Below are positions 4,168 through 10,703 of a DNA stretch of 64,000 nucleotides, one piece after another. The notes beneath the pieces were generated by a model that was not told where the DNA came from, did not search any database, and was given only the letters and a program-made list of their open reading frames with translations. Position numbers and translations under genes: made by a program. Position 1 is the first letter of the stretch; every line of letters starts with the position of its first letter. Source of the stretch: a virus; IMG/VR virus record IMGVR_UViG_3300017605_000906, positions 5,397 through 69,396 of that record. The stretch is one strand, 5' to 3'.

Positions 4168-5055
4168 TTATTGTTGATTGTTTACCCACCGCTCCTCGAA
4201 CAAGCTAGGCATCTTCAGAGTCTCGCAAAAGACTTCTGTCATGGCAGTGGCTTGCTCTGCTGTAGGCTTCTCGCGACGAATCCAGCGGAAGAAATACCAC
4301 GTCAGGTCTGTCCGTCGTTGGATGCGCTTGAACATCTCCTCATCTGTATTGATGGGATGCGGGAAGTCTTTGTTCTCCGCGTTCATCATCAGGATGGACG
4401 TCTGGCAAGCCATACGCACCTGGCCAATCATCTCGTCTTCATTCCAGCACTCGATGCGCTGCGCGACGACGCCTTCAGATAACTTGCGCAGAGGCATCGT
4501 GTGCTCGACTAGCACGGTCTCTCCCGTCGGGCACCAGATGTCATAGAATGCGCAATCGCAATGGCAGCTGTTCGCTTTCGCCTGTTCCAGGTAGTAATAC
4601 AGGTCATCGCAGACAACGCTCGTCTTGCGCTTGGGAAGAAAAGGCCAGACCAGGTTGATGACATCCTGGGACCTTTCCACGACGATGATTTTTTTGACCT
4701 TAGGCATCTTTTCGAGCAGCGCGACTGCCACACCCAAACCTAAACCTCCCACAAGCACCGTTCCGTGGAAGCCTTTTAGTTGACGAGTGACCTGTTCTAT
4801 CTCTTGAGGCATGGACGTCATCCATGTCCCATAGCCACTCTGTTTCAATCGATGGATGTGGAGTGGCTCGGACAGCACGAGCGTTGTCTGCTTCAATCCC
4901 ATGAATATGGCATTGCGCATACCGACGACAGGGAGCCGTGAGCCCGCGGGCTCTGTGTAGATTTCAACTTGCATTCTCCCCGACTTGCCGATGTGCAATG
5001 GAAAGGGCAGGCTGTAGTTTTTACCGTCACGAACGTATGTAGGAAACGCTTTCAT
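4168..5055 (-). CDS. Class I SAM-dependent transferase (spermidine-synthase-like fold)
   Basis: WMTSMPQE, VLVGGLGLGV (motif I), IIVVERSQDVI, AFYDIW. Confidence 0.75.
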   Translation of the reverse strand: MKAFPTYVRDGKNYSLPFPLHIGKSGRMQVEIYTEPAGSRLPVVGMRNAIFMGLKQTTLVLSEPLHIHRLKQSGYGTWMTSMPQEIEQVTRQLKGFHGTVLVGGLGLGVAVALLEKMPKVKKIIVVERSQDVINLVWPFLPKRKTSVVCDDLYYYLEQAKANSCHCDCAFYDIWCPTGETVLVEHTMPLRKLSEGVVAQRIECWNEDEMIGQVRMACQTSILMMNAENKDFPHPINTDEEMFKRIQRRTDLTWYFFRWIRREKPTAEQATAMTEVFCETLKMPSLFEERWVNNQQ

Positions 5056-5290: not shown

Positions 5291-5878
5291 TCATAGCACC
5301 TCGAAGCCGAGCCTCTTGAGAATCAGTTCCAGCCAATACCTTTTCTTGGCGCGGCTTTTCAACTCCCTCAAGAAGTGCCCATACTCGGCTTTCCAGCAAC
5401 GCTCGGCTTCATTCTCGGAGCTGCCATCGCACAACGCTTCGAGAGCGTGCTGACGAATGTAGCGCAAGTCAATGGCTTCCGGCTGGCGTCCGAAAGTGCC
5501 CGACGACTTGCTGCCCTTTCGCATACTGCGGGAGCCCCACATCACGTGCTCCAGTCCTAGATTGCTGGCGGCGAGATACGCCGCAGCCTCTTCCACGCGC
5601 ACGTGCGTCTTGAGCATGCCCGTTACGTCCTCTGCGAGACTCGGATTCATCGCAGCGAAATTACCTGCGGGTGAAATCGTCGCCGCAAAGTTATCGCGAC
5701 GCATGAGACTACACTCCGCGTGCTCGATGCATTGACGAATCGCCTCGTTGCGAGAGTTTGCGCATCCACTACGCGTGGACCCGAATTCTCCCGCGTCGCG
5801 TGCCGGTGCGCCGACTGACCATGACCATAATTTTTTATCCTTCATATGTATTACCTTTCTTTGTTTGTTTCGATTCAC
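5291..5878 (-). CDS. hypothetical protein
   Basis: ORF tiled in operon; likely start MKDKK at 5845. Confidence 0.55.
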   Translation of the reverse strand: MNRNKQRKVIHMKDKKLWSWSVGAPARDAGEFGSTRSGCANSRNEAIRQCIEHAECSLMRRDNFAATISPAGNFAAMNPSLAEDVTGMLKTHVRVEEAAAYLAASNLGLEHVMWGSRSMRKGSKSSGTFGRQPEAIDLRYIRQHALEALCDGSSENEAERCWKAEYGHFLRELKSRAKKRYWLELILKRLGFEVL

Positions 5879-7301: not shown

Positions 7302-8246
7302 TCAATCGAAATTGAACTTGCGCGACGGCTTATTGATGAGCAACGCATCCAGTTGCTTGTTGACTTGCTCAAACTTCTCGGCCACTTCGTTGCGGACGTC
7401 CACGTTTTCACGAACGGCGTCAGCGTCGAACTGTGCGACGATTTTGCGAGCGTCCTCCATGACCCGGGCCAATTCCACATCGTTGGTCATGTCGCGAGCA
7501 CTGAACGTATCGAAAAACTCATTGAAGTTTTTCACCATCGACTTATCGCGGAGCACCTTGGCTTGCGCTCCCGGTCCGACCTTCAAGCGGTCGGCGGCGT
7601 GACTGACGAGCTGCTTGAGACCATCGCGCAGCGTGTTACGGACTTCCTTCTGTGCTTCAGCGAACGTCTCCTTCAGCTTCTTGACTTCACGGGCGCGCAC
7701 TTCATCGGGGAGTTCATCGGGGACATTCATACCGAACCAGTTCCACTCGATGTAGAACGTGCGCTTGAGGTCTGCCTCGCTCGGGTAGTCGCTCTCACGA
7801 TAGAGCACTCCGAGTTTCTTCTTGGCCTCTTCTTGCTTCTTGGGATAGACCTTGAAGAATGCCGGGAGCAACTCGTCGACAACCGCCTTATTGGACTCCT
7901 TGATTTTCGCCTCGAAGGCGCCCATCATTTCGCGCTTGACGAAATAGACTCCCTTGCGCACGGTGCTCATCATCGAGCGGGAGACGCACCACGCTGCGGT
8001 CTCGTCGAGCAAGATGCGAATCTTTTCCAGCTCCTCGCAGACGACGAGGCGCTTGGTGATGTTTAACTCGTCCTTGTCGGACTCGACGGACACGTTGTCG
8101 TTCTTTTCGCGACGACTGACCGATGCGCGATTGCCCCACTTGTGAGTGCTCATCGAGAATAGGAAGGCGTTGCGTAGAATCTCCAGCTCTGCACCGCCGT
8201 CTTTGATTTCGCGTTTGACTGCTGCCGTTTTTGTTTTCGTTTTCAT
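7302..8246 (-). CDS. DUF3150-like protein
   Basis: Helical protein with KKLGVLYRESDYPS motif typical of DUF3150-like proteins; biased codon usage; ends RKFNFD. Confidence 0.55.
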   Translation of the reverse strand: MKTKTKTAAVKREIKDGGAELEILRNAFLFSMSTHKWGNRASVSRREKNDNVSVESDKDELNITKRLVVCEELEKIRILLDETAAWCVSRSMMSTVRKGVYFVKREMMGAFEAKIKESNKAVVDELLPAFFKVYPKKQEEAKKKLGVLYRESDYPSEADLKRTFYIEWNWFGMNVPDELPDEVRAREVKKLKETFAEAQKEVRNTLRDGLKQLVSHAADRLKVGPGAQAKVLRDKSMVKNFNEFFDTFSARDMTNDVELARVMEDARKIVAQFDADAVRENVDVRNEVAEKFEQVNKQLDALLINKPSRKFNFD

Positions 8247-8270
8247 TACTCTTTAATTGTTGATTGGTGA

Positions 8271-8302
8271 AAAGGTCGGGAGCGTTTCAACTCCCGACCT
8301 TT
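8271..8302 (-). terminator. 12-bp stem hairpin (terminator or processing/stabilising stem)
   Basis: AAAGGTCGGGAG (8271-8282) / CTCCCGACCTTT (8291-8302) between the AAA gene stop and the next gene. Confidence 0.6.
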
Positions 8303-8311
8303 CTCTATTAC

Positions 8312-9832
8312 TTACACGCTGAACTTCCGGCCCGTCGGGGTCGGCGCTGCAGCCTGCTTCTCGTATTCGTAGGTGCCCGGTCGTGAGGCGCTGATGAATC
8401 GACCGCTGGCCTGCATGCGCAAGGCTTCGATTTGGTCCGCTGCACTTTTGCAGACGGGCGTGATATACTTCGCCGCTTCAAAGAGCGGCTTGTTGGTCCG
8501 ATTCGCCACATCGCAGCAGGCGCGAATCTCGGCACCCGTCCAACCCTCGTCGTCGGGCAGCTTCTGCTTGGCGAGCTCATACTTGGCGGTCCAGATGTTC
8601 CAGATGACTGCTCGCTCTTCCGCGTCCGGGAGGTCCACGTAGAACGTCCCGAGTGAGAAGCGACGGCGCAGTTCCGGCGGCAGACTCGCAATCTTGTTAC
8701 AAGTCGCGATGAACAATCCCTTACCCTGACTAACTGCCTTGAACGTGGCCATCGCTTTGCGAATCTTCGCTTGCGATTCACCAACGAGACTTCCCGTCAT
8801 CGCGCCAGTGTCGATAGAGAGCACTTCAGCGCCACTGACTGCGCCCGCGCCCTTGGCGATGGCTGACTTGCCTGTGCCCGGAGGCCCGATAAGAATCAGG
8901 CCCGGGATGTCGTTGTCCTGCATCTCAGTGAGGAACACGCGCAACTGGTCTTGTGATACTCCGCTCAAGTCACCAGACGCACCGGCGAATAGTTTCTCAA
9001 TCTCGTCGATGAATCCGATGCAACGAACGGGGTTGCGTCCCGAGGTCAACAAGTCGGAGAGATATGACTTGATGTTCGCGAGACCACCGATGGTGTCGAA
9101 CGAGCCTTCACCGCGCCAGACGCTCAGACCCGGAGTCTGCTCGACCATCTTGGCTTTACGGGAGAACAGCATTTCTTGATTCACTTCGAGACCGCTGCTG
9201 CCCTTGACGATACTCATCGCGAGGCATTGCTCAGCGGCGAATGCGCTCATACCCAGGAGCGTGTCGACGATTTGCTCCTTGTCGTCCGTCTTGACGCCCG
9301 CCGGCGTCAGAACATTCTCCTCGGCAATCTTGGTGAGCTCGGCGCTATCGGGCAGTGGTTCAGTGACCACCACCACGTCGTGCTGTAATTCGGACGGCAA
9401 CACTAACGCGGGAGCGAGCAGAATCAAATGACTGCCATTCGCCTTCCACGTGTCGCGAAGATTCCAGATGGCTTGCGACACCGTCTCGTTGGTGATGAAC
9501 TTGTGTGCGTTCTTGAAAAAGCACACGCTGTTGCCCGGGGCCTTGTCGTTGAGCAACGAGAGGCATTCGGTCGGGTTGCCCGACTGGATGGGACCATCGG
9601 GAGCGATGTTACGAGCGGCTTGCTGACCTTCCTTATTCAGACCAGACAAACCCTTGACGATGTCCCATTGCATAATGGAATAGGGTTTCTTGTCTGCGGG
9701 AAGTTCCGCAATCGTGTTCTTGATAGTCGCCGCAGGGTCGCACGTTTCGATGCACGCGAGCGGGACGCCAGCGCGACGAATCGCTTTGATGGGATGTTCG
9801 GTGGAGAGTTTCGTGGACGTATTCGTTTTCAT
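8312..9832 (-). CDS. Ycf46-like AAA+ ATPase with swapped Walker A/B order
   Basis: Degenerate N-terminal AAA domain; IGGLANIK, FIDEIEK, GPPGTGKS, SLVGES, IATCN, LPPELRRRF, VDLPDAEER, GWTGAEI. Confidence 0.88.
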   Translation of the reverse strand: MKTNTSTKLSTEHPIKAIRRAGVPLACIETCDPAATIKNTIAELPADKKPYSIMQWDIVKGLSGLNKEGQQAARNIAPDGPIQSGNPTECLSLLNDKAPGNSVCFFKNAHKFITNETVSQAIWNLRDTWKANGSHLILLAPALVLPSELQHDVVVVTEPLPDSAELTKIAEENVLTPAGVKTDDKEQIVDTLLGMSAFAAEQCLAMSIVKGSSGLEVNQEMLFSRKAKMVEQTPGLSVWRGEGSFDTIGGLANIKSYLSDLLTSGRNPVRCIGFIDEIEKLFAGASGDLSGVSQDQLRVFLTEMQDNDIPGLILIGPPGTGKSAIAKGAGAVSGAEVLSIDTGAMTGSLVGESQAKIRKAMATFKAVSQGKGLFIATCNKIASLPPELRRRFSLGTFYVDLPDAEERAVIWNIWTAKYELAKQKLPDDEGWTGAEIRACCDVANRTNKPLFEAAKYITPVCKSAADQIEALRMQASGRFISASRPGTYEYEKQAAAPTPTGRKFSV

Positions 9833-9875: not shown

Positions 9876-10085
9876 TTATTGATGTTGATGGTCATCGTGA
9901 CTGTGGCCGTGCCCGAACATATGCTGCGACGCGTGCTTCAGTTTGCGTGCGATAGAACCACCGGCGAGTTTGAACATCTCTCGCAAGAAGCCTTCCGCGT
10001 TGACGTGATTGGGGCCACTAATTTTGTCGGTGTCTACTTTGATGGTGCCATCTTCCAAGATGGTCACTTTAATTTTGTCTGCCAT
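9876..10085 (-). CDS. DUF2997-like small protein
   Basis: KIKVTILEDGTIKVDT N-terminus typical of DUF2997; His-rich tail; adjacent to Ycf46-like ATPase. Confidence 0.6.
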   Translation of the reverse strand: MADKIKVTILEDGTIKVDTDKISGPNHVNAEGFLREMFKLAGGSIARKLKHASQHMFGHGHSHDDHQHQ

Positions 10086-10111: not shown

Positions 10112-10387
10112 TTACTCGAAGTTGAACTTGCGAACAGATGTTGCTGCGCCGACAAGCTCAGGTTTAATACTAGCAATCTTGCCACTACCGTCAGTGGCTT
10201 TCACAAACGATGCGTCTTGCTCGGCGACGCCGGCTTCAACCAAGCGAACGTGCTTGCACGTCCGTGCGCCATTCTTACAACGTAGCGTCCAGCCCTTGCA
10301 GTCGCAGGACATTGACCTGTCGTCTTGGACCAAGACTTGATAAAGCCCCGTGCCTTTCGACGAGCGAAAGATGTAGGTGTGTAGCAT
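10112..10387 (-). CDS. SWIM zinc-finger protein
   Basis: SSKGTGLYQV...CDCKGW...TCKH (CxC...CxH). Confidence 0.8.
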   Translation of the reverse strand: MLHTYIFRSSKGTGLYQVLVQDDRSMSCDCKGWTLRCKNGARTCKHVRLVEAGVAEQDASFVKATDGSGKIASIKPELVGAATSVRKFNFE

Positions 10388-10388
10388 A

Positions 10389-10703
10389 TCATCTCCTTAC
10401 AATCTCGTATTCGTATTGCGATGTTTGCTTCACCTGCCAACCGAATCGCTTGGCTTGCGAGAGCACGACTTGCGCGGAATAACCGCGCTTGAACTTTGCG
10501 ACCTTCTCATCGGCTTGCTTTTGATTGAGCCCTGAGAAGGTGAATTCATGCGACGCGCAATGGTAACTGCCACCATTGAACTTGATGATGTCGCCCGTAA
10601 GTTTCGGATTGAGTCCGTCTGCTTCGAGCGCGGCGTTGAGCAAGTTGCGGTCCGTGTTAGCGGAGAATTGCACCTTGGCTTCTTGAACTGTCCAGCATGG
10701 CAT
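10389..10703 (-). CDS. DUF1257/Ycf35-like protein
   Basis: Start MPCW at 10703; LLNAALEADG...KRGYSAQVVLSQAKRFGWQV matches the DUF1257 pattern. Confidence 0.6.
   Translation of the reverse strand: MPCWTVQEAKVQFSANTDRNLLNAALEADGLNPKLTGDIIKFNGGSYHCASHEFTFSGLNQKQADEKVAKFKRGYSAQVVLSQAKRFGWQVKQTSQYEYEIVRR

Follow-up and report, generated by a model that had tools for sequence, protein, structure and literature searches.

A phage AAA-type ATPase gene whose Walker B block is encoded ahead of its Walker A block

Results

The locus and the order of its motifs

Our study concerns one gene in a 64,000-nucleotide stretch of viral DNA (positions 5,397 to 69,396 of the IMG/VR record IMGVR_UViG_3300017605_000906, which has 69,396 bases and is an estimated ~93% complete); this whole stretch is called the window, and nucleotide positions refer to it. 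GpJ-like tail and SNF2 helicase genes lie nearby and confirm that the virus is a tailed phage. The gene is the longest open reading frame (ORF) across positions 8312-9832, and its product, P0001, has the motifs of an AAA-type ATPase. It belongs to a run of minus-strand genes that includes an SNF2-type helicase gene (661-2010) and a methyltransferase-like gene (4168-5055), and it sits among early and DNA-metabolism genes. Table 1 gives the parts of the gene and its neighbours.

The Walker B motif of P0001 (CIGFIDEIEK, residues 271-280, nt 9022-8993, with D276 and E277) is followed by the loop GDLSGVSQDQ and a helix that ends in LTEMQD. Downstream of it in the chain comes the Walker A segment PGLILIGPPGTGKS, with GPPGTGKS at residues 316-323 (nt 8887-8864), then the pore-loop-1-like SLVGES (residues 348-353), a helix ending in FKAVSQGKG, sensor 1 in LFIATCN (residues 373-379, N379) and LPPELRRRF (residues 384-392), which carries the putative Arg fingers R390 and R391. 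An earlier note, made from the letters of the window alone, had claimed that Walker B (~9002-9022) is translated before Walker A (8864-8887), and both the claim and its nucleotide coordinates proved exact. Individually, the motifs are those of the classical AAA clade: GPPGTGKS fits the Walker A pattern GxxxxGK[ST], IGFIDE (residues 272-277) fits the Walker B pattern hhhhDE, and the second region of homology is represented by the polar sensor 1 residues (T377 C378 N379) and the two Arg fingers. An AAA+ alpha/beta core with a helical lid is also predicted by the AlphaFold2 model of the second domain (D2), by its fold matches in the PDB and by covariation. What the protein lacks is the collinear order of Walker A, pore loop 1, Walker B and sensor 1, since Walker B comes first. 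The succession of Walker A and then Walker B is treated as fixed in P-loop ATPases and is built into annotation profiles. P0001 is unmistakably an AAA ATPase, but it departs from the single defining trait of collinearity of the motifs.

Table 1. Coordinates of the parts of the ATPase gene and of its neighbouring genes in the window.
Feature	Position (nt)	Strand	Remarks
Whole ORF	8312-9832	-	506 aa plus stop, ATG start; tandem AAA-type ATPase with degenerate D1 and permuted D2, predicted active
N-terminal alpha/beta and helical domain, residues ~10-235	9128-9805	-	No Walker motifs; p97/Cdc48 D1-like; also in canonical-order relatives
Linker and helix 0 with IGGL (residues 248-251), residues 241-265	9038-9112	-	From domain alignment and AlphaFold2 model; covariation ties it to the P-loop
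Block B, residues 266-310	8903-9037	-	Strand 3/Walker B, GDxSGVSQD loop (pore-loop-2 position), helix 3 ending LTEMQD; precedes Walker A
Block A, residues 311-370	8723-8902	-	Strand 1, Walker A, helix 1, strand 2, pore loop 1, helix 2
Block C, residues 371-400	8633-8722	-	Strand 4 with sensor 1 (T377 C378 N379), LPPEL, Arg fingers R390/R391, strand 5
Helical lid and C-terminal extension, residues 401-489	8366-8632	-	Conserved GWTGAEIR, C439/C440
C-terminal tail, residues 490-506, ending GRKFSV	8315-8365	-	Model confidence (pLDDT) 60 and 52 in the last blocks; R502 nearly invariant
DUF3150-like gene, 314 aa, downstream	7302-8246	-	63/72 viral loci, 58/80 genome loci; tail SRKFNFD
69-aa gene, upstream	9876-10085	-	His-rich C-terminus; 32/72 viral loci
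91-aa gene, upstream	10112-10387	-	Weak SWIM-zinc-finger-like CxC...CxH; 9/72 viral loci; tail VRKFNFE
Upstream gene, longest ORF 145 aa	10389-10826	-	23/72 viral loci

Profile comparisons of the exchanged blocks

The Pfam profile AAA (PF00004) matches the whole protein at E 2e-16, split into two stretches, the best of which pairs residues 312-366 with positions 1-55 of the 131 profile positions. When the blocks were searched alone, residues 255-312 (block B) matched profile positions 47-96 (E 1.3e-3), residues 310-374 (block A) matched 1-55 (E 4.8e-10) and residues 369-436 (block C) weakly matched 102-124 (E 0.21). The order along the chain is therefore 47-96, 1-55, 102-124, with the middle of the AAA profile encoded ahead of its start, which is the split, out-of-order alignment that the earlier note had foreseen; the swap far exceeds chance expectation. 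The same is seen in the homolog P0123, where profile positions 58-106 match residues 263-309, upstream of an intein inside the P-loop. In a sequence search of the PDB, all 130 matching chains were classical AAA ATPases, with VAT, p97 and Cdc48 at E 1e-14 to 1e-11, and the best stretches all began at residues 308-311, covering the Walker A block only (residues 310-380).

Evidence on where the relocated block belongs came from an hhalign comparison of 61 permuted sequences with 46 canonical-order sequences related to gp65 of Aeromonas phage HJ05 (HJ05-type). The first match is collinear and includes the N-terminal domain (permuted 6-489 to canonical 6-527, probability 100, E 1.5e-46); in it, permuted residues ~270-305 stay unpaired and canonical residues ~352-396 are gapped. 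The second match, which is out of order, pairs these same two pieces with each other (271-314 to 352-396, probability 97.1, E 4.9e-11). This comparison of sequences makes the relocated block a homolog of the Walker B-helix 3 segment of the canonical proteins. Together, the out-of-order Pfam blocks and the second hhalign match bear out the proposal that two adjacent internal blocks have changed places in a non-circular manner.

Other profile collections gave little. PHROGs returned phrog_8638 (function unknown), chiefly across the N-terminal domain, and NCBIfam gave only partial matches far under the cut-offs, including CDC48, CdvC and 'anti-phage ATPase IteA' (residues 373-446). No family name was assigned from these matches. 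No Pfam family matched residues 15-244, and no Walker A or Walker B motif was found in residues 1-240.

Conservation of the order across the family

The swapped order was then sought among homologs. A word-indexed protein search scored 8000 proteins, 2247 of them at E <= 1e-3, and the 120 relatives listed have 50-100% identity at 94-100% coverage. By motif pattern, 106 of these 120 nearest 90%-identity clusters have Walker B before Walker A and none has the canonical order; the other 14 are pattern misses, mostly with the P-loop variant GPPGxAKS. When the 50%-identity representatives were searched exhaustively, 6698 matched at E <= 1e-3; of these, 3351 reached E <= 1e-10 and 1173 reached E <= 1e-30. 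The best-scoring 150 of the 6698 all have E <= 1.1e-99 and are near full-length, 137 as a single collinear stretch and the others as two (inteins, truncations); 140 of them have Walker B first, nine are pattern misses and one is ambiguous owing to a second chance match. It is important to note that matches weaker than E 1e-99 include canonical-order relatives, and permuted status is not claimed for all 1173.

The same order was identified in viral genomes. IMG/VR contains 140 relatives; 71 ATPase ORFs were extracted from 80 of their loci, 66 of them with Walker B first by pattern and the remaining five with the permuted order when read by eye. All 50 sequences of a more divergent domain alignment (A2; half of the rows displayed) have the permuted order, with identical junctions throughout. 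Among 50,697 phage records there were two matches only, gp65 of phage HJ05 and gp103 of the cultured Tunturiibacter phage Tunturi_3 (labelled 'ATPase', 38% identity); the latter has the permuted order. The earlier note's suggestion that homologs with the same order be sought was thus answered in the sets of 120, 150 and 71 proteins, in which no clear canonical case appeared. These observations establish that the swapped order is a trait of a whole large phage family and not of a single gene; the family comprises at least 150 clusters at 50% identity, and probably several hundred.

These data also bear on whether the order is an assembly or frame artefact, a chimeric or mis-joined contig that confines it to this record. 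The window does come from a metagenome-assembled virus record, and no public sequencing run holds more than 14% of its sampled words (three runs contain small shares, 0.14, 0.08 and 0.07, and no RNA run is listed among those containing the stretch). Contig coverage has gaps, at nt ~9262-9320 among other places. Nevertheless, two factors make an artefact a practically negligible explanation. First, the same order and junctions occur in hundreds of independent assemblies (JGI, ENA, Logan, NCBI) at 40-80% identity, as well as in the sequenced isolate Tunturi_3. Second, short contigs of run X1, from another soil sample, span two of the three junctions: block B to block A (8817-9029, 15 differing letters in 213 bases) and block A to block C (8520-8815, nine differing letters in 296 bases). 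The check on sequence across the junctions that the earlier note had called for therefore succeeded for these two and not for the junction of helix 0 with block B. Read support is modest, but the independent homologs make it unnecessary, and mis-assembly, which the earlier note had named as its possible refutation, was rejected on the strength of the independent homologs and the isolate.

Catalytic residues and inteins

The catalytic residues are preserved almost without exception. In an alignment of 46 sequences (A1), E277, K280, G316, G319, K322, S323, T377, C378, N379, R390 and R391 are invariant, as are V350 and G351 of pore loop 1, and at least 90% of the sequences retain D276. Across A2, whose sequences diverge more, the Walker B D and E, the following K, the P-loop G, G and K, and VG, CN, LPPE and RR are likewise invariant. 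This conservation suggests purifying selection on the catalytic residues, and it agrees with the earlier description of every catalytic motif as intact.

Five homologs (P0123, P0127, P0129, P0135 and P0228; 810-896 aa) carry inteins of 278-401 aa, inserted after K322 (GTGK^S), after G319 (PPG^C) or after T377 within sensor 1 (IAT^CN). They have C...HN boundaries with Cys or Ser at the +1 position, and Hint, Intein_splicing, LAGLIDADG or HNH domains. Inteins typically occupy functionally critical sites of expressed genes. A member of the canonical family, P0275, also has Intein_splicing and HNH domains in the precomputed Pfam list.

Predicted fold and covariation

AlphaFold2 models of the full-length protein (46-sequence alignment) reached a mean predicted local distance difference test score (pLDDT) of 89.7 and a predicted template modelling score (pTM) of 0.82. 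For D2 alone (50-sequence alignment), the values were 91.7 and 0.87, with residues 271-280 (strand 271-275) above 90. The predicted secondary-structure elements follow exactly the expected order, and E31-35 and H52-66 of the D2 model correspond to block B. Compared by VIA-align with 48,161 PDB representatives, the D2 model had classical AAA ATPases as its top matches: NVL (Z 15.7, 198 aligned residues, root-mean-square deviation 3.2), spastin (Z 15.6, 188 residues), and then Pex1/6, Rix7, Vps4, p97 and FtsH, overall at Z 14-16 with 180-200 residues at 2.6-3.5 A. The test by AlphaFold that the earlier note had proposed thus yields, at pLDDT 90-92, a predicted AAA-like fold. The structural alignments span ~190-200 of the 266 D2 residues, as expected under the swap if a sequential aligner must skip the relocated ~45 residues.

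The models also point to a two-domain layout. Residues 10-479 of the full model align with D1 and D2 of p97 (210-763) and Cdc48 (220-785) at Z ~18 over ~396-403 residues, and its top Foldseek matches are Rix7, p97 and Cdc48. Two stacked AAA-like domains per chain, as in type II AAA proteins, are therefore predicted, and the nucleotide-binding motifs of such proteins are absent from D1. Because the alignment covers both domains of p97 and Cdc48 and the first has no Walker motifs, residues ~10-235 are read as a degenerate D1-like domain.

Mean-field direct coupling analysis (DCA) was conducted on residues 241-480 of 323 permuted sequences (effective number of sequences, Meff, 248), and the 60 best pairs were considered. 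The relocated strand 3 is coupled to strand 4 (G273-F374, rank 7), to strand 2 (G273-I340, rank 16) and through I278-A376, and its start is coupled to the end of helix 2 (C271-S368, rank 3; R270-Q369). Strands 1 and 5 are linked by L314-V399 and I315-Y398, helix 3 and helix 2 by E303-K365, N307-K365 and V299-I357, the loop 293-296 is coupled with the pore-loop-1 region 343-354, and the linker with the P-loop (L251-G321, I248-A324, G243-A324). The textbook strand order of the AAA+ sheet is 5-1-4-3-2, and this covariation supports a canonical sheet with the relocated strand between strands 4 and 2.

These results must be weighed against the idea that the upstream DE block is not the working Walker B of D2, with strand 3 absent or a separate element and the protein a pseudo-ATPase or an enzyme of different chemistry. 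Many members have a deviant P-loop, block B alone scores 19.6 bits in Pfam against a gathering score of 21.2, and the assignment is built on sequences and models rather than on coordinates or biochemistry. We nevertheless consider this idea improbable. The block matches the canonical Walker B-helix 3 block at E 4.9e-11, and the permuted family has lost the corresponding canonical position; D276 and E277 vary little or not at all; the couplings join G273 and I278 to strands 4 and 2, and helix 3 to helix 2; the strand is modelled at pLDDT above 90; and invariant Arg fingers and sensor 1 make sense only with ATP hydrolysis. Taken together, the invariant residues, the confident AAA-like model, the covariation and the family-wide conservation suggest that the protein is probably functional, as the earlier note had supposed.

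Canonical-order relatives and the origin of the swap

Phage HJ05 gp65 shares 22% identity with P0001 and has the same whole architecture in canonical order. A search with it gave 2988 matches, and 114 of the 120 listed score as Walker A before Walker B; some of these HJ05-type members were named 'SpoVK/Ycf46/Vps4 family AAA+-type ATPase' by JGI, and the homology to proteins so labelled extends across the full length, N-terminal domain included, as the first hhalign match indicates. In bacterial genomes, we identified 354 relatives and used 80 loci, which gave 79 ATPase ORFs; 70 of these have the canonical order at 28-31% identity, six on contigs of metagenome-assembled genomes (MAGs) are permuted (L084-L088 and L091), and three could not be scored. 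The canonical loci are almost all from Planctomycetota, including Anatilimnocola sp. NA78 (L137), Singulisphaera sp. Ch08, Rhodopirellula baltica and Blastopirellula marina DSM 3645, which has two canonical copies (L111, L138). The label 'AAA/Ycf46' given by the earlier note therefore holds for AAA, by PF00004 and the PDB matches. For Ycf46 it is a loose label, since the comparison was made with Planctomycetota and HJ05-type proteins and not with plastid or cyanobacterial Ycf46; the nearest canonical relatives found are Planctomycetota chromosomal ATPases and phage or plasmid ATPases.

These canonical sister ATPases share with the window protein a length of ~500-560 aa, a degenerate N-terminal domain, the lid, the C-terminal extension and the DUF3150-like neighbour gene, as well as the motifs SLVGxSE, DSGVS, ATCN, LPPE and GWTGAE (SLVGQSE and IATCN in the Planctomycetota proteins). 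They differ from it in having Walker A before Walker B, in their 22-31% identity and in forming separate clades. Compared with the Planctomycetota proteins, the borders of the exchanged segments are sharp: block B begins with P-x-x-C and runs from strand 3 to the end of helix 3, block A begins with P-x-G and runs from strand 1 to the end of helix 2, and each retained its own leading residues on changing places.

A maximum-likelihood tree was built from 68 rows (29 permuted, 24 Planctomycetota-type and 15 HJ05-type) and 517 columns under LG+G4 with a quick search. Each group occupies one side of a branch, with support by the Shimodaira-Hasegawa-like approximate likelihood ratio test (SH-aLRT) of 100, 99 and 100, respectively. 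When the tree is rooted on the HJ05-type, the Planctomycetota-type becomes the sister group of the permuted clade and a single change of order is needed. Since similarity was used to collect the groups and the root was assumed, the tree shows consistency with a single origin and is no proof of it. One swap event suffices, and the sequences are consistent with a single-origin, non-circular permutation of the AAA core. Several independent permutations or reversions would be the alternative: 68 rows with an assumed root are a small basis, and groups collected through similarity to two queries favour clean separation. Such repeated events appear very improbable, given that all permuted sequences have the same junction positions and linker motifs and that a branch with SH-aLRT 100 sets the permuted rows apart, with a single change needed on the tree.

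We propose that the swap took place once, in the common ancestor of the large phage clade, from a canonical-order ancestor that would already have had the N-terminal domain and the DUF3150-like partner gene. The most economical route would be an in-frame internal tandem duplication of A-B (N-A-B-C to N-A-B-A-B-C), after which the first A and the second B would be lost to give N-B-A-C; we infer this duplication-deletion route from the sequences.

Neighbouring genes and C-terminal tails

Neighbours on the same strand were counted at 72 related viral loci (Table 1). The 314-aa protein matches DUF3150 clusters in the ESM Atlas with a feature score of 0.97 and a structural TM score of 0.72, which passes the bar; a literature search on DUF3150 returned only an unrelated mention. 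The gene also stands beside canonical Planctomycetota ATPases, so that the pairing predates the permutation. A partnership of the two proteins may be supposed. Complex prediction from their alignments (A1 for the ATPase and A3 for the DUF3150-like protein) scored 0.00 against a mark of 0.32, which speaks neither for nor against binding. Judging by the family that it resembles and the genes around it, we would guess, at roughly even odds at best, that the ATPase is a ring-shaped remodeller or unfoldase driven by ATP, and that the DUF3150-like protein would be its partner or its substrate in early infection or replication.

Neither Pfam nor PHROGs yielded a usable match for the four small genes nearby; the 69-aa protein may be DUF2997-like. 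The SWIM match of the 91-aa protein (E 0.11) is below threshold. The real start of the 145-aa ORF is probably at residue 42 (about nt 10703), where its Atlas entry begins; its match to DUF1257 clusters (score 0.86, TM 0.74) lies under the bar and is a lead only. On Planctomycetota chromosomes, the pair of canonical-order ATPase and DUF3150-like genes (L092-L163) is sometimes present in two to three copies per genome (one MAG, for example, has L120, L123 and L156). The small ORFs upstream have ends of the form ...DGSIKLT/H..., and the tails of the ATPases are similar to RRKIPRDPSVN.

The C-termini of three proteins of the window share a motif: GRKFSV in the ATPase (8315-8335), SRKFNFD in the 314-aa protein (7305-7325) and VRKFNFE in the 91-aa protein (10115-10135). 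At loci L004-L083, R-x-[FILVM]-x-[FILVM], often followed by an acidic residue, occurs within the last 12 residues of 35/73 ATPases, 49/64 DUF3150-like proteins and 10/10 proteins of the 91-aa family, against a background in other ORFs of 81/1364 (6%) and 68/1481 (5%). The tail Arg is invariant in the 314-aa family (R309) and nearly invariant in the ATPase (R502), and the motif is also present on further neighbouring ORFs of other loci. The motif may serve these proteins as a common tag for docking or recognition. The C-terminus of the 69-aa protein is His-rich (…GHGHSHDDHQHQ), as in essentially all 33 of its homologs beside these ATPases, and the composition of these tails suggests metal binding.

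Right after the ATPase stop codon (8262-8305, minus strand) lies a 9-bp GC-rich hairpin, GGTCGGGAG...CTCCCGACC, followed by TTTT; a consensus terminator scan did not list it, the T-run being below threshold. Plus-strand ORFs within the ATPase gene (8373-9431; for example, 8739-9179, 146 aa) seem conserved in 46 of the 72 loci because they shadow the conserved ATPase frame, and this is no evidence of a gene.

Discussion

Our reading of these results, to which we give a probability of roughly 0.8, is that the gene product is a functional phage ATPase from the classical AAA clade, that its two domains are laid out as in p97, and that two segments of D2 have been exchanged, once in evolution, with the fold kept. 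D1 (residues ~10-235) would be degenerate and nucleotide-blind and D2 (residues ~240-490) active, with the segment strand 3/Walker B, pore-loop-2 loop and helix 3 now placed ahead of strand 1/Walker A, helix 1, strand 2, pore loop 1 and helix 2. The chain path would be b3-a3-b1-a1-b2-a2-b4-a4-b5 in place of b1-a1-b2-a2-b3-a3-b4-a4-b5, and the three-dimensional fold would be unchanged, with the sheet in the order 5-1-4-3-2, the helices on the same faces and only three loops rewired. Helix 3 would lead to strand 1 instead of strand 4, and helix 2 to strand 4 instead of strand 3, in both cases the neighbour of the old target, and helix 0 would lead to strand 3 instead of strand 1, two strands away. 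Each crossover would keep its direction across the sheet, hence its right-handedness and the face of its helix. The active site would be assembled as usual from K322/S323, D276/E277, N379 and the trans-acting Arg fingers R390/R391, most likely in a ring-shaped, ATP-driven remodeller or unfoldase that uses pore loop 1 (SLVGES).

Several observations weigh against this interpretation. The P-loop GPPGxAKS, with Ala for the Gly before Lys, is the majority form in the viral set, Tunturi_3 has GVPGVSKS, and in pore loop 1 a Leu takes the place of the aromatic residue of classical AAA proteins. A deviant P-loop is tolerated in MCM-type Walker A motifs. The partial sequential alignment of the models with known structures is what the swap predicts and is not proof of it, the DCA alignment is shallow (Meff 248) and of unmeasured precision, which makes it supporting evidence only, and the exact connectivity in three dimensions is a deduction. 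ATPase activity, Mg-ATP hydrolysis and a hexameric ring are what we infer from the invariant catalytic and trans-acting Arg residues. No contig spans the junction of helix 0 with block B (nt ~9019-9040) with 31 letters on both sides. Finally, no duplication intermediate with a second Walker A or Walker B in D2 (B-A-B-C or A-B-A-B-C) was found by motif pattern among 390 proteins and 160 loci, the exhaustive matches being searched among the best 150 of 6698.

Block B could also enter the sheet of a neighbouring protomer, so that the site would be completed in trans by a three-dimensional domain swap. AAA proteins are obligate oligomers, monomer AlphaFold2 models are compatible with such a swap, the linker from helix 3 to strand 1 is short (NDIPG), and DCA is blind to the difference between cis and trans. 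The monomer model folds in cis with a pTM of 0.87, and on topological grounds the rewired loops would reach strands adjacent to, or two away from, their old targets; for these reasons, we judge a domain swap to be an improbable arrangement and prefer a block B that folds back into its own D2.

With its best structural matches by model (p97/VCP, Cdc48, NVL, Rix7, Pex1/6, spastin, Vps4 and FtsH), P0001 shares the second region of homology, a VGESE-type pore loop and an LTEMxD end of helix 3, and it differs from classical AAA proteins in its D1 without Walker motifs, its pore-loop Leu and the position of Walker B and helix 3 upstream of Walker A. Circularly permuted GTPases of the YlqF/YjeQ/RsgA type, in the TRAFAC class, are P-loop NTPases that have a non-standard motif order, keep their fold and gained new termini by circular permutation. 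The window ATPase, in contrast, keeps its termini and flanks, swaps two internal blocks and belongs to the ASCE/AAA+ division.

Another parallel is the major capsid protein of Bordetella phage BPP-1, described in PMC3863775 as a naturally non-circularly permuted HK97 fold: it too is a phage protein with a non-circular permutation of a highly conserved fold, but it is structural, no enzyme, and has no catalytic motifs. No publication describing an AAA protein with Walker B before Walker A was found in a search that left supplements and most subscription journals outside, and this absence is unproven. In a jumbo-phage review (PMC7824862), the mentions of 'permuted' and 'AAA+' concern methyltransferases and other AAA+ proteins. 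The main text of the Tunturi virus paper (PMC11924767) never uses 'ATPase' or 'AAA', and its supplementary tables might annotate gp103. We lean only slightly towards the larger claim that no natural non-circular permutation of the AAA+/ASCE core had been recognised before this one, which is carried by a large phage clade with the threading b3-a3-b1-a1-b2-a2-b4 that would still work as an ATP-driven ring motor; a module with a shared docking tag may exist alongside it.

The family has consequences for annotation. Collinear profiles report a fragment of these proteins (Pfam positions 1-55), leaving a large family of putative soil and freshwater phage motors under-described. Two members, P0007 and P0012, were named 'adenylate kinase family enzyme' by JGI, probably because collinear profiles recognised only the P-loop block.

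On the side of biology, the family suggests that an AAA core can be re-threaded internally and non-circularly without the loss of any catalytic residue. If our reading is correct, helix 3, which carries the inter-subunit-signalling position and comes after pore loop 2, would have a covalent link to the P-loop strand, and helix 2, after pore loop 1, would run directly into the sensor-1 strand. The family would then be a natural experiment on the role of chain connectivity in the allosteric coupling and folding of AAA motors, and a worked example of the rewiring of a fold by internal duplication and deletion. The differently connected elements would bear on how ATP hydrolysis is coupled to substrate movement, a question of both mechanism and engineering, and the canonical sister clades, shared partner gene and sharp junctions suit the study of how a non-circular permutation originates. 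The cultured phage Tunturi_3 of Tunturiibacter psychrotolerans, which carries a member, offers an experimental entry. If the tag is real as well, the ATPase, the DUF3150-like, the SWIM-like and other proteins would form a module docked to a common site through their tails of R-x-hydrophobic-x-hydrophobic-acidic form.

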